Part shown: positions 21,369-29,947 of the stretch, piece by piece
How the letters are laid out: each line of letters starts with the position of its first letter
How positions within the stretch are numbered: position 1 is the stretch's first letter
DNA from: a virus
Taxonomy: Duplodnaviria > Caudoviricetes
Direction: 5' to 3' (one strand)
DNA: 64,000 nucleotides
Virus record (IMG/VR): IMGVR_UViG_3300043447_000395
Coordinates: 1-64,000 of that record
Position numbers and translations under genes: made by a program
Notes under the pieces: generated by a model
Databases searched by the model: none
What the model was told of the DNA's origin: nothing
The model's input: the letters and a program-made list of their open reading frames with translations, nothing else

Positions 21369-22031
21369 TTATAATAATTTTTTACAGTCCATTAAAGAAT
21401 ATAGGTAATGTGCAAAATCTAAATGTCCTTGAAAGGAGAAGTGACCGTCATCTATTTTACGATTAGTGTGGTCTTTGATTTTGGTAAATGTGTTATATAT
21501 TTTACTGTCATCCTCTAATGACCATTTGTAAAAAAACCGTAATTTTTTATCTTTATTAAGTCTATCACCAATAAATTTAAACCTCTTTTTGTGTCTTTCT
21601 TTGTAAAATTTATGATTCGAAAAATGATATTGAAAATTAATCACTGCCTCAATTTTTTCTTTTTCTTGACTATCGTTACCATCTCCAACGATTTTCATCA
21701 CATTTTCATATGTTGATAATACATTACGGGTATTGTCGTCAAATGGAACTTCAATCCTACCATGTAATGTCATGTTTACAATTACAACATCCCCTTCGTT
21801 TATTTCATCATATTTTTCAATTATGGAATCAAAAATATAATCATTAGACGCTCCATTCCTACCAAAATTTTTAACCTCGTAATTTAATAATTTACCTAAA
21901 TGATTTGGCCAAATATCGTCACCTTCTTTTTTGTATGGTAGATATTCCTCTTTAGTGTCCGACACACATAATTCATTACATCCGTGTCCGAATGTCATTG
22001 AATCTCCAAATGTCCATAATATGTTTTTCAT
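21369..22031 (-). CDS. SGNH/GDSL-fold protein
   Basis: FGDSMTFG, GASND, DGHFSFQGH; ends KKLL. Confidence 0.8.
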   Translation of the reverse strand: MKNILWTFGDSMTFGHGCNELCVSDTKEEYLPYKKEGDDIWPNHLGKLLNYEVKNFGRNGASNDYIFDSIIEKYDEINEGDVVIVNMTLHGRIEVPFDDNTRNVLSTYENVMKIVGDGNDSQEKEKIEAVINFQYHFSNHKFYKERHKKRFKFIGDRLNKDKKLRFFYKWSLEDDSKIYNTFTKIKDHTNRKIDDGHFSFQGHLDFAHYLYSLMDCKKLL

Positions 22032-22588
22032 ATTAAACTTCTATCAAATTTTTTAAGTATATATCTGTTTTTAATATGAAGTATTTTATTAAATAAATCA
22101 ATATTAAATGTAATGTTTAAATAATTACACATATCGATAATTTCTTGTGATGGGTAATCTAAAAATATATCCTCATAATAGTAAACGCGTTTATTTAGTG
22201 TAATTTCATCAAATATTAAATTCCACTCATTAATTTTCGTCTCCGCAATGAAATTACTCTGTTCTTTACTATTCATCAATCTATGAAAATCGGAAAATGA
22301 TTTTTTAATATTTTCGATGTTTTTTCTTTTTATGTAAATAACTTTATCAAATTCTTGTACAATCCTAAACGAATGTTCAGTTAAAGTTTCACCATTTTTT
22401 AATATTATGGGATCATGTTCTTCATCGGTTAACACTGACTTTACAATACATTCATCTCCCCATTCAACATCAGTCACTCTTTTAAATGGTTCATATTTTA
22501 CAACATAATTTTTAGGTAAGGACTCGACCAAAAAATCAAATAGACTACTTGTTCCACATCTTGGTAAACCAAAAATTAAAATTTTCAT
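22028..22588 (-). CDS. sulfotransferase-like P-loop protein
   Basis: GLPRCGTSSL (PAPS 5'-PSB-like), EPF, YYEDI; ends RSLI. Confidence 0.7.
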   Translation of the reverse strand: MKILIFGLPRCGTSSLFDFLVESLPKNYVVKYEPFKRVTDVEWGDECIVKSVLTDEEHDPIILKNGETLTEHSFRIVQEFDKVIYIKRKNIENIKKSFSDFHRLMNSKEQSNFIAETKINEWNLIFDEITLNKRVYYYEDIFLDYPSQEIIDMCNYLNITFNIDLFNKILHIKNRYILKKFDRSLI

Positions 22589-23286
22589 TATATTAAATTT
22601 CTGTTTTTTATAAAATTACCAATTATGTTTTTTTCAGCAATATGACATACCCCGTTATAGTTTAAATTTTCAAATGACGGATTTTCTTCATACAGGTAAT
22701 TTATATTATCAAAATATAAATTTAAATATTGTTGATTTAATGTAATTGGTGGAACATCATTATATCTTTTAATAAAGAAATCGTAATTTAAATCAATAAT
22801 GTTCAATACTTCAGAATACGTTTTATTAATGGTCGTATAATCATTAGTTGCAATTATGCAGGTATTGTTTAACTCATTAAACTCTAATGGTGTGTTTGAG
22901 TATCGTTTATATATTTCGGTAAAATTATCTGTTTGAATTTTAGTTAATGGGTGTTTGTAACCAAGATTTAATCTATCCCCATTTATAATATTTTTTAACT
23001 TACTAAAATCGTTAACCACTAAATCATTATCTAAATGTATAAATGGAAAATCAATCTCCGATAAAACTTTCAATTTTGGATATGACCACAACGTATTTTG
23101 TTTGTATCTCTCATCTGTTTGAAATTCAACCCAATTGTATTTCAAACCAGTGTTCTTAAAATAATCGTCGTCGGAATATATGAACGGAATTATGCTTTGG
23201 TCATTTAATTTTTCAATTGAATAACTCAAATAGATTTCAGTAACTTCTTTTAGTCTGATTGGTAAATATGTAAAAACTACGTCCAT
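22588..23286 (-). CDS. GT-A-like protein (DUF6734-like)
   Basis: WSYPKLKVL, PFIHLDNDL (DxD), LNQQYL; ends RNLI. Confidence 0.55.
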   Translation of the reverse strand: MDVVFTYLPIRLKEVTEIYLSYSIEKLNDQSIIPFIYSDDDYFKNTGLKYNWVEFQTDERYKQNTLWSYPKLKVLSEIDFPFIHLDNDLVVNDFSKLKNIINGDRLNLGYKHPLTKIQTDNFTEIYKRYSNTPLEFNELNNTCIIATNDYTTINKTYSEVLNIIDLNYDFFIKRYNDVPPITLNQQYLNLYFDNINYLYEENPSFENLNYNGVCHIAEKNIIGNFIKNRNLI

Positions 23287-28430: not shown

Positions 28431-29921
28431 TTAACATAATGGGTAACACACTCCCCATGTACAAGATTGATTTTTAGGACATGAAGGACATGGATACCAA
28501 CAAGCATTTACACACGCCCAACTTGGACAATATCCGTTAAAATTGTGCTCAACCGAAACAAATGAATCATTATTAGTTGATCCTTCCGTTTTAGTTAAAA
28601 ACAACTTAGCGGTTTCAACTGAAATAAACCAACCTGAAAATGCTCTTTTGTGTTGAACATTTGAAATTACGGTTTTTCTAACAAAGTTTATATTGTTATC
28701 TGTTGTATTTAATAACAAAACCACATCTCCCACAATTATATTAAATAATCTTTCAAACTTAACCACACCTTCTCTATCTATTAGATACATTGAAGCCATC
28801 GTATCTTCCCAAGTACTATCGTCATCAAAAGTTAATTCGTTCATATAAGTTAACGTGTTCACTCTTTGTTTTGCGGTAATAATATTGGTTGTATATATTG
28901 AATCACTTAATAACGTTTCGTATGTAAGAGCAAAATCTGATGATATGTAACTATCAATACTGGTTCCATTTGCATTTGGTATTTCGATTGTTTTGATACT
29001 ATCACCAACTTGTAAATCTAACGCAGTTTTAAATGATCCGTCGGCCATTTCTACCATGTCCGTATCTATCAACTTTGGTAAGTTTGTTAATGTTGGGTTT
29101 GTGGTGTAACTCGCCTTAAAATCGGAATCAACTTCAAATGTCGTTGGGTCATAAGTTACATTATCTAATAAAATATTTTGATTTAATTTTGTGTATTGAC
29201 CAATTTGAAATGACTCCAAATTTGGGGGAAATAAAATATTTAAACTTCTAATTACAGTTGAGTGTCCTTCCCATGTTTTATTAGGGTTGTATAAATATTC
29301 CATTAAGAAGTATTCAGGACTAACGTTATTTGTAATTAAAGTATCCAATTCAGATTGAGTTGTTACTTTAAAGAATTTAGGGTAGAGTGACTTATCGTAT
29401 CCTGGGTATCTCGCCTTTAAAATAAAATTAGGATGTTCACCATTATCATTTATAGATGTGATGTTCGACACCAATGTGTTATTATCGTCCAAATATGCGA
29501 ATTTAGAACCAAAAGAAGTGTCCTTAATTAGATTCATAAATTCAATCTTATCCCTACAATATGTGTCATCAACTAAGGCCGTGGTGTCGTAAGCACTTCT
29601 AATAATTAGAGTTGTATCATTATCCTCTATGTATGGAATTGTAATAGATGTTGAACCTACTCCATGAAATTCATAAGTTATCGAACTTCCACTATAATGT
29701 GCCTGTAATGCTACGTGAAATGGTCCAATATCCCCAACATAATGTATTGTTTGAAAATTATTATCCGCAACAAATTGATACAGAACCTCTAAATCTAAAC
29801 AATCCACATCATCTTCCACTTTTTCGGGTCCATCCCATCCTACTGCGGTGTTTATTTCAATTGGTCTTAAATTACCATCTTTATCGTACATAAAGTCCGA
29901 ACCTACTAATACTGTTCTCAT
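28431..29921 (-). CDS. circularly permuted ATP-grasp + Hint domain + C-terminal Cys-rich peptide fusion
   Basis: GSDF...IEINT at the N-terminus, FILKARYP, FLMEYL (CP-ATP-grasp); KLIDTDMVEMADGSFKTALDLQVGD...ISVE...EHN (Hint); then 36 aa with 8 Cys. Confidence 0.75.
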   Translation of the reverse strand: MRTVLVGSDFMYDKDGNLRPIEINTAVGWDGPEKVEDDVDCLDLEVLYQFVADNNFQTIHYVGDIGPFHVALQAHYSGSSITYEFHGVGSTSITIPYIEDNDTTLIIRSAYDTTALVDDTYCRDKIEFMNLIKDTSFGSKFAYLDDNNTLVSNITSINDNGEHPNFILKARYPGYDKSLYPKFFKVTTQSELDTLITNNVSPEYFLMEYLYNPNKTWEGHSTVIRSLNILFPPNLESFQIGQYTKLNQNILLDNVTYDPTTFEVDSDFKASYTTNPTLTNLPKLIDTDMVEMADGSFKTALDLQVGDSIKTIEIPNANGTSIDSYISSDFALTYETLLSDSIYTTNIITAKQRVNTLTYMNELTFDDDSTWEDTMASMYLIDREGVVKFERLFNIIVGDVVLLLNTTDNNINFVRKTVISNVQHKRAFSGWFISVETAKLFLTKTEGSTNNDSFVSVEHNFNGYCPSWACVNACWYPCPSCPKNQSCTWGVCYPLC

Positions 29922-29931
29922 GCTATTTTCT

Positions 29932-29947
29932 TATTTATATATAAATA
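29932..29947 (-). promoter_or_regulatory. palindromic TATTTATATATAAATA, putative late promoter
   Basis: 10 nt before the ATG at 29921; contains the TATTTATA seen before fibre-locus genes. Confidence 0.45.

Follow-up and report, generated by a model that had tools for sequence, protein, structure and literature searches.

Several described systems resemble, each in part, the viral locus reported here. Enzyme-fused precursors of peptides that are made on the ribosome and altered after translation (RiPPs), such as the borosins (OphMA), and conotoxin-style precursors have a conserved, large N-terminal part followed by a hypervariable C-terminal core. In the Tetrahymena BUBL proteins, the middle module, which is ubiquitin-like, lies between two bacterial intein-like (BIL) domains and becomes conjugated. 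Eukaryotic glutathione synthetase carries the ATP-grasp fold in circularly permuted order, and short free C-terminal motifs on unrelated enzymes are represented by the peroxisomal targeting signal PTS1 (S-K-L-COOH), the cargo-loading peptides of encapsulins and PDZ ligands. In polymorphic toxins, as described in a passage of PMC3482391, a Hint autopeptidase termed pretoxin-HINT lies just upstream of the polymorphic C-terminal module and is thought to free it. The locus lies in a 64-kb stretch of DNA (hereafter the window), which is the first 64 kb of the 104-kb virus record IMGVR_UViG_3300043447_000395 of IMG/VR. On the minus strand, from 29921 to 21369, twelve tightly packed open reading frames (ORFs) run in one direction: the gene of a 496-residue protein, here called the hub, a 29-codon ORF and ten protein genes, nine of which end in the same short C-terminal tag. 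A co-directional unit had been claimed in a preliminary description of this DNA, and all twelve ORFs were indeed found on the minus strand.

The hub, encoded by the first gene of the row, comprises a predicted ATP-grasp domain, a Hint domain and a cysteine-rich tail. This layout, in company with tagged enzymes, appears to be new: no paper or family model was found for it, and no description of it was found in the literature on ATP-grasp and Hint proteins, on BIL cleavage and cysteine-rich peptides, on phage RiPPs or on amidoligases. Our tentative reading, to which we give a probability of roughly 0.4, is that the hub is a self-releasing peptide precursor and that the tagged tailoring enzymes dock on it in a hub-and-client maturation system.

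Architecture of the hub protein and its relatives

The hub has no match in Pfam, PHROGs or NCBIfam. A tblastn search of 50,697 GenBank phage records found neither the hub nor the zinc-ribbon-like protein of the row, and megablast of the entire row gave no match. Metagenomes contain 753 close homologues of near-constant length, on contigs of up to 336 kb, and in a library of 1.8 billion proteins the family forms 238 clusters at 50% identity. A single relative, 29% identical, was recovered from cellular genomes in one scan of 185,579 species genomes that used patterns from close relatives only. This relative (L092) lies on the 248-kb contig CBFHJJ010000001.1, which is labelled as a Flavobacteriaceae metagenome-assembled genome and whose genes look phage-like; possibly the contig is a binned phage, and it may point to the group of the host.

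An AlphaFold model of the whole hub, built from 87 sequences, has a pLDDT of 87.8 and a pTM of 0.85, with the tail alone poorly defined. The body of the protein is 61–84% identical among 20 relatives, and the tail keeps just its Cys framework, one Pro and one Lys. The same pattern of conserved body and variable tail is seen across the 238 clusters. It is the pattern of a RiPP precursor, a conserved recognition part joined to a hypervariable core, the "leader" being in this case a two-domain protein of 460 residues. The succession ATP-grasp–Hint–peptide read in the preliminary description is thus retained, as a predicted permuted ATP-grasp fold, a Hint fold with Lys at position 1 and a terminal Asn, and a hypervariable Cys tail.

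Residues 1–278 (29088–29921, minus strand) are predicted from the domain model, structural comparison (VIA) and Foldseek to form a small, circularly permuted ATP-grasp domain of the glutathione synthetase (GS)/glutathionylspermidine synthetase (GspS)/YgiC type. Folded alone, they gave a pLDDT of 87.7. The best 11 of 48,161 chains in the VIA comparison were all ligases of the GS/GspS/YgiC branch (Z 8.5–6.2, 188–224 residues aligned), namely YgiC, glutathione and homoglutathione synthetases, glutathionylspermidine and trypanothione synthetases, two uncharacterised relatives and the E-64 ligase Cp1B. The next chains, at Z 6.1–4.7, included TTLL, LysX/ArgX (Z 5.1) and RimK (Z 4.7). Foldseek matched human and yeast glutathione synthetase with E values of 2e-5 to 1e-4, and its matches extended to an E value of 2e-4. 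The VIA alignments begin at model residue 1–3, which agrees with the circular permutation known from eukaryotic glutathione synthetase. Moreover, the 87 sequences, which range down to ~22% identity, all have E22, N24, R108, D118 and R225, and nearly all have K169; E22-x-N24 is a candidate metal-binding motif and K169 a candidate ATP-binding Lys. On the model, then, the domain is an ATP-grasp fold of the GS/GspS/YgiC branch, although its Z scores are modest. At the sequence level, hub residues 10–32 showed a weak, local match to a biotin carboxylase domain in its E-x-N region (E 0.68), and a comparison of the N-domain profile with E. coli YgiC by hhalign gave no signal (probability 0.15).

The phage domain is like the GS, GspS, YgiC and YjfC ligases in its permuted fold order and in a putative E-x-N metal motif near the hub N-terminus. 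It differs from GS, GspS and YgiC in its length (~278 residues, compared to ~370 to >580), in its fusion to a Hint domain and in having no detectable sequence similarity to them. Those members of the branch that have been characterised couple an amine to the C-terminal carboxylate of a small peptide. RefSeq lists YgiC as a peptide--spermidine ligase, and a passage of PMC12568646 cites it as peptidylpolyamine synthetase.

Residues 283–460 (28542–29075, minus strand) form a predicted Hint domain, recognised by VIA, profile and alignment, in which intein position 1 is a Lys and the last two residues are His-Asn. In the VIA comparison, residues 280–460 matched 50 entries for inteins, BIL domains (BIL2 among them) and hedgehog (Z 14.3–11.3, 126–150 residues aligned). 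Lys283 of the model aligns to intein residue 1, and the final residues align to the intein end. The family profile also matches the KlbA intein (E 5e-8). The hub of the window gave no match to the Hint models of Pfam, including Pretoxin-HINT (PF07591); six of the 87 family members match PF07591, probably via a second, canonical Hint domain. Lys283 is invariant in 20 close relatives. In the 87 sequences N460 is invariant and H459 occurs in at least 90%, and nearly all full-length relatives have the His-Asn pair. The residue following N460 (position +1) is Phe in the window and Pro, Asp, Leu and others in the relatives. Because residue 283 is a Lys and the +1 residue is freely variable, thioester formation and splicing are excluded. 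A true splicing intein was rejected accordingly, there being no Cys, Ser or Thr at position 1 and no +1 nucleophile. To judge from the alignment, cyclisation of Asn460, with cutting after this residue, is the sole reaction for which all residues are present and invariant, and we infer that the hub cleaves after N460.

As in pretoxin-HINT and BIL proteins, the Hint domain of the hub stands before a variable C-terminal module, and BIL and intein structures are its best fold matches. The hub differs from both in having no nucleophile at position 1, so that Asn-driven C-terminal cleavage alone is possible. It further differs from pretoxin-HINT in its cargo, a 36-residue Cys peptide, in its N-terminal partner, a putative ATP-grasp ligase, and in its phage setting without a secretion system.

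The hypervariable tail (residues 461–496; 28434–28541, minus strand) contains eight Cys in 36 residues. Distant relatives keep the His-Asn pair and continue with wholly different Cys-rich stretches of ~25–70 residues (100+ tails listed). The conserved Lys of the tail is found either within C-x-K-x-x-C or close to the tail's end; its survival under rapid tail turnover suggests that it would be a natural amine partner for an amide ligase. A 211-kb IMG/VR contig carries two hubs ~38 kb apart (L048 and L059), with differing Cys tails and C-x-K-x-Y in both. A graspetide-type core was considered and rejected: conservation in the tail is confined to Cys, one Pro and one Lys, without a conserved pairing of Thr/Ser or Lys with Asp/Glu for side-chain rings, and RimK, at Z 4.7, ranks below the GS-type ligases.

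In relatives with two Hint domains (P0179, P0204, P0213, P0241, P0170, P0269 and L086:8001-9959), the Cys peptide is followed by a canonical mini-Hint that begins with Cys; in P0269 the second Hint directly follows the first. The second Hint ends in His-Asn and is followed by a short Lys-containing tail with no +1 nucleophile. The peptide of these relatives would therefore be placed between a putative C-cleaving Hint and a putative N-cleaving Hint. The order Hint–cargo–Hint is shared with BUBL, and BIL2 of BUBL1 is a top fold match. However, the window hub has a single Hint, and the middle module of the double-Hint relatives is a Cys peptide and not a ubiquitin fold. In other relatives (P0176, P0177, P0219, P0203, P0230 and P0262) the Cys stretch is followed by an autocleavage motif like that of intramolecular tail-fibre chaperones, S-D-x-R-L-K-x-N-I, and the peptide may be cut at both ends. 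Taken together, the double-Hint, autocleavage-motif and two-hub variants suggest that the purpose which is conserved is to release the C-terminal module. A giant relative of 1,667 residues (L088:150-5153) keeps the ligase–Hint part, carries a cargo of ~1,200 residues and is encoded directly upstream of the gene for a tail sheath. It is preceded by a micro-gene of 30 residues and has no tagged neighbours within the readable 5 kb, which suggests that the tag goes with the cysteine-peptide forms of the hub.

The C-terminal tag and the companions of the hub

The tag has the consensus [KRNPT]-[TSNK]-[LF]-[LIV]-COOH, in outline a basic position, a polar one (in most cases Thr, Ser or Asn) and two that are aliphatic. 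It is present on nine of the ten protein genes that follow the micro-ORF, for example as -KTLL, -KSLI, -RNLI or -KTLV, as the preliminary description had noted for nearly all genes of the row. Of the 114 ORFs on the 104-kb contig, 17 have [LF][LIV] as their last two residues; outside the ten genes of the row the count is 8 of 104. The probability that chance would place the tag on nine genes of the ten is ~3.5e-8 (hypergeometric, hand arithmetic). Since this control is drawn from the same AT-rich genome (G+C ~31% in the window), AT-rich composition fails to explain the tag. In the related loci the Leu residues of the tag are encoded by TTA, TTG, CTA, CTT and CTC and the Ile residues by ATA, ATT and ATC. 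The first and third bases of these codons vary, the T at the second base is kept, and the polar position uses many codons. Such constancy of the second base with variation of the first and third argues for selection on the protein and not on a DNA element. The tag also stays in frame at the protein end despite the varying spacer.

Three further tagged genes lie in a second enzyme cluster on the plus strand (38651–46155), at 38651–41365, 42264–43016, the latter a 2-oxoglutarate (2OG) oxygenase, and 45163–46155. The tag is like PTS1, encapsulin cargo-loading peptides and PDZ ligands in being a short free C-terminal motif on unrelated enzymes, and differs from them in being phage-encoded and in its basic, polar, two-aliphatic consensus. 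A PDZ reader was not found with the single PDZ model used (PF13180) in three related viral records of 211–336 kb, one of which is rated complete; the tag may also be read by a protein of the host.

The neighbourhoods of seven cysteine-peptide hub loci (L003, L004, L010, L085, L086, L090 and L092) were read by hand. In L003, L004 and L010 (62–79% hub identity), 9–10 consecutive tagged genes lie behind the hub, and in L085 (41%) eight lie before it and two behind. L090 (~31%) has nine tagged genes, including one for a SET-domain protein, and the block ends where unrelated genes start. In L086 (~26%, double Hint) the tag is carried by sulfotransferase-like, Trp halogenase, radical SAM and SGNH genes. 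Tag and hub are thus found together from 96% to 26% hub identity, and the tagged block abuts the hub. Neighbours in the relatives comprise a member of the Asp/Arg hydroxylase family, a Trp halogenase, radical SAM and B12-radical SAM proteins and a SET-domain protein; the claim that the tag stays constant while the enzyme set changes holds in all seven loci.

Two cultured cyanophages have comparable enzymes and no hub: ACG-2014g carries homologous 2OG genes, and S-SSM6a a cluster with carbamoyltransferase, halogenase and 2OG genes. The basic-polar tag was found on none of 14 proteins from these two phages, one of which ends in two hydrophobic residues without a preceding basic residue. Tagged enzymes in genomes that lack the hub gene, which had been named as evidence that would speak against a common system, were thus absent from this small sample. 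The pertinent passages of a jumbo-phage review (PMC7824862) cover only the hub-less cyanophage cluster and read a comparable cluster as serving polysaccharide decoration or secondary metabolite synthesis. In S-SSM6a (L094:11313-13706), three tandem paralogues of 261–264 residues, very rich in Cys and Gly, lie just upstream of the halogenase/carbamoyltransferase cluster.

Two small genes accompany the hub. The micro-gene (28310–28399, minus strand) encodes 29 residues and lies directly after the hub gene; a gene of this kind was found behind the hub at each locus examined. It is conserved in nine aligned loci, where the differences are mostly synonymous; it is also present at 41%, 49%, ~31% and ~26% hub identity, and it is this type of gene that precedes the giant-cargo relative. 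Being conserved and not variable, it looks like a partner subunit and not like a modified product. The 29-residue peptide as a variable product was therefore rejected, and that part of the earlier RiPP-like model which made it the substrate of the docked enzymes is unlikely. The second companion is a tagged Cys-rich protein of 105 residues (26844–27161, minus strand; phrog_13558), which is zinc-ribbon-like and whose relatives show weak similarity to DUF6171. It stands beside the hub in L003, L004, L010, L085, L090 and L092, and in L092, the most distant of the examined loci with a cysteine-peptide hub, it is the direct neighbour of the hub and the sole tagged one.

Proposed peptide maturation and competing explanations

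If the hub is a self-releasing peptide precursor, its ligase–Hint body would serve as a very large leader. The tagged enzymes would dock via their free C-terminal tails on this body, on the micro-protein or on the zinc-ribbon partner, and the tethered peptide would be modified by hydroxylation, sulfation with phage-made 3′-phosphoadenosine 5′-phosphosulfate (PAPS), glycosylation and acyl editing, to which the relatives would add halogenation, methylation and radical-SAM chemistry. The ATP-grasp domain would make one amide bond, probably between a carboxylate of peptide type and the single Lys conserved in the tail. Finally, cyclisation of Asn460 would cut the N460/F461 bond and free the finished peptide, which would leave the cell at lysis. 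Hydroxylase, halogenase, sulfotransferase and glycosyltransferase neighbours echo known peptide modifications, and the prolyl-hydroxylase-type oxygenases, the Asp/Arg hydroxylase, the halogenase and the SET-domain and radical SAM neighbours fit the modification of a peptide or protein. Unlike in the borosins and conotoxin precursors, release would here be performed by the hub's own Hint domain, and recognition would depend on a tag carried by the enzymes in place of a substrate logic in which the leader is recognised.

A system of this kind would be a widespread module of large uncultured phages that fuses an amide ligase to a cleavage-only Hint and a fast-evolving Cys peptide and takes up interchangeable enzymes via a four-residue tail. 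It would mean that phages devote a late operon to making heavily decorated small peptides. It would represent a new logic for peptide natural-product biosynthesis or a new protein-ligation chemistry, and the tag would be a compact, transferable docking signal for enzyme recruitment.

Several observations weigh against the hub as a peptide precursor. The ATP-grasp assignment is structural only, with no link through Pfam, PHROGs, NCBIfam or the YgiC sequence, and its best Z score of 8.5 is near values that unrelated models sometimes give. Model confidence is low for the tail, that is, for the presumed product. The three tagged genes of the plus-strand cluster are 9–16 kb away from the hub. Where relatives carry cargoes of 1,100–1,200 residues beside a tail sheath gene, no neighbour is tagged, and these relatives cannot be peptide natural products. 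A UDP-glucose dehydrogenase is tagged in a related locus, so that not every client can act directly on the peptide, and the tagged GT10-like and SGNH enzymes are of glycan type and may work on sugars or on nearby Ser/Thr-rich fibres. Lastly, cleavage, ATP use, docking and all of the modifications are steps that we infer.

The main rival reading is conjugation, the second model of the preliminary description. Here the ATP-grasp domain would activate the tag carboxylate as an acyl phosphate and join it to the alpha-amine of the cargo or to its Lys; the enzyme would gain a covalent cysteine-rich peptide, and the hub would act as a single-turnover, ATP-driven protein ligase. Its nearest relatives by structure all couple a peptide C-terminal carboxylate to an amine, which makes ligation of the tag more than fanciful. 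Moreover, the tag is always at the extreme C-terminus, the ligase–Hint–cargo fusion would put a fresh amine beside the active site, and one Lys is kept in the otherwise hypervariable tails. LysX/ArgX (Z 5.1) load the C-terminus of a zinc-ribbon carrier, and the tagged zinc-ribbon protein is the most constant neighbour of the hub. However, the residue exposed by cleavage varies freely and is often Pro or acidic, and this variability, the frequent Pro above all, weakens the alpha-amine version of the model. In addition, one hub would serve one client, yet there are ten or more clients, and the enzymes have no apparent need of such a tail. The double-Hint relatives own a thioester route yet keep the ATP-grasp domain, a point that is neutral. 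We consider it unlikely that the hub is a self-priming, ATP-driven protein ligase that fits tagged enzymes with a Cys module or a large virion-associated cargo. Were it one, it would perform a protein-joining chemistry unrelated to sortases, inteins and ubiquitin-type systems.

It is likewise doubtful that the locus is an island for glycan or virion decoration, in which the enzymes build and edit glycans or hydroxylated residues on the Ser/Thr-rich, collagen-like fibres or on the host surface, the tag is addressed elsewhere and the hub gene, a passenger of this variable region, makes a separate peptide such as a toxin or a binding module. The contig does carry fibre genes, a GT4–FkbM fusion, a carbamoyltransferase and an adenosine 5′-phosphosulfate (APS) kinase. 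The tagged UDP-glucose dehydrogenase, the tagged genes at 38–46 kb and the position of the giant-cargo hub relatives in a structural module also agree with decoration, as does the reading given to the cyanophage cluster in the review passages (PMC7824862). On the other hand, an independent address leaves unexplained that tag and hub stay linked over the whole range from 96% to 26% identity, in a block that abuts the hub, and that the only tagged protein of L092 is the hub neighbour. The hub-less cyanophage clusters are untagged, and a PDZ-type reader was not found in the three large related viral records.

A role of the tag as a degron, read by a host unfoldase or protease so that the enzymes are short-lived or remodelled, is quite improbable. 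The tag resembles in outline a basic-then-hydrophobic C-terminal class of ClpX recognition signals, but its link to the hub and the destruction of late enzymes in a lytic phage would be left unexplained. Least credible of all is a tag without protein function, arising merely from AT-rich composition or from some DNA element of the gene junctions (a promoter, a site of ribosome loading or a joint of cassette recombination), which the AT-rich tag codons and the many stop/start overlaps might suggest and which was rejected in view of the mere 8 of 104 other ORFs that so end, the varying codons and the frame kept across varying spacers.

Enzymes of the row and genomic setting

Stop and start codons overlap at many junctions of the row, and the spacers between its genes measure 0 to 64 nt. 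Coordinates of the enzyme genes, all on the minus strand, are given in the order in which they follow the micro-gene. The first (27753–28286) encodes a tagged 2OG-oxygenase-like protein of 177 residues, with a match to phrog_2954 (E 8e-21). It has an H-x-D...H pattern and no Pfam match, and it shares a match to phrog_3531 with the next protein, a tagged 2OG-Fe(II) oxygenase of the prolyl-hydroxylase type (193 residues, 27161–27742; PF13640, E 2e-13; phrog_61, E 2e-27). Beyond the zinc-ribbon-like gene lies a tagged SGNH/GDSL-like protein of 221 residues (26158–26823), with GDSL matches in Pfam that are weak and below the cut-off (E 2e-4 to 4e-3) and an N-terminal GDS block. It is followed by a tagged sulfotransferase-like protein of 243 residues (25424–26155), in which P13, A16, S19, H64, R85 and S93 are invariant among eight homologues. 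This assignment is based on the conserved PAPS-loop, His and R...S motifs, and the profile of the protein weakly matches heparan sulfate 2-O-sulfotransferase (E 0.04). The next gene (24565–25359), for an SGNH-like protein of 264 residues, is the sole exception to the tag in the row; its homologue in L086 is tagged.

A tagged protein of 416 residues (23286–24536) had been listed in the preliminary description simply as an SEKT protein. Its place in the row stands, and it looks like a GT10 (fucosyltransferase-like) enzyme, though only by a lead in the Atlas that pointed to clusters of PF00852 with a score of 0.83; no match was found in Pfam, PHROGs or NCBIfam. The last three genes are tagged as well. 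They encode a DUF6734-like protein of 232 residues (22588–23286; PF20508, E 2e-5, just below the cut-off), a protein of 186 residues with a sulfotransferase-type N-terminal PAPS loop (22028–22588; PF17784, a weak match of residues 2–20 only, E 0.09) and an SGNH-like protein of 220 residues (21369–22031), which has no family match and is a paralogue of the 221-residue protein with the same GDS block. Among the enzyme labels given earlier, that of the 193-residue 2OG oxygenase is thus firm, the SGNH labels draw on weak Pfam matches and the GDS block, and the sulfotransferase labels on motifs and a weak profile match. No class-defining RiPP maturase or RiPP recognition element (RRE) was seen among the Pfam or NCBIfam matches of the row proteins, no search aimed at RREs having been made.

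A promoter-like 16-mer (29932–29947, minus strand) ends 10 nt before the hub ATG. It is a perfect palindrome with TATAAATA, the T4 late-promoter octamer, on both strands, the minus-strand copy being at 29932–29939. At the same spot upstream of the first gene, an AT-rich element like ATTTATA(TA)TAAA is found in most of 19 loci. In the window TATAAATA was found 13 times compared to 15.1 expected, that is, with no enrichment. The late promoter claimed for the row was therefore upheld as to the presence of the motif and the conserved position of a related element, but not as to its frequency, which is that of chance; the label is plausible, as a guess suited to a T4-like phage. The octamer also overlaps the stop codon of the gene at 21369–22031, and further sites before 24536 and 21314 suggest that the row may have internal promoters.

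Upstream of the row lies a trio of genes (29949–31017, minus strand) for an APS kinase of 157 residues (PF01583, E 1e-17), a protein of 128 residues and a DUF2061 protein of 71 residues (PF09834, E 9e-17). Their order is kept in L003, L004 and L086, and the trio is consistent with the sulfotransferase-like genes of the row. Directly downstream of the tagged row, at 18594–21314, lies the gene of a 906-residue fusion of a GT4 glycosyltransferase with an FkbM-type methyltransferase, which is untagged and syntenic in L003.

To judge from its genes, the source contig is a fragment of a T4-like myovirus in which collagen-like tail fibre genes are abundant. PHROG matches on the contig include a baseplate wedge-like protein, an SbcC-like nuclease, a Nol-like carbamoyltransferase and several radical SAM proteins. 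Related contigs reach 286–336 kb, one of them rated complete by CheckV, which points to a jumbo-phage lineage with metagenomes as its sole source. Elsewhere in the window, six adjoining genes at 50415–59439 encode proteins of 452–482 residues, three of which match radical SAM PHROGs and the rest have no match. Finally, the G+C content rises to 43.5% at 62001–64000, compared to ~30% elsewhere, and this jump coincides with a collagen-like tail fibre gene at 62037–63725.

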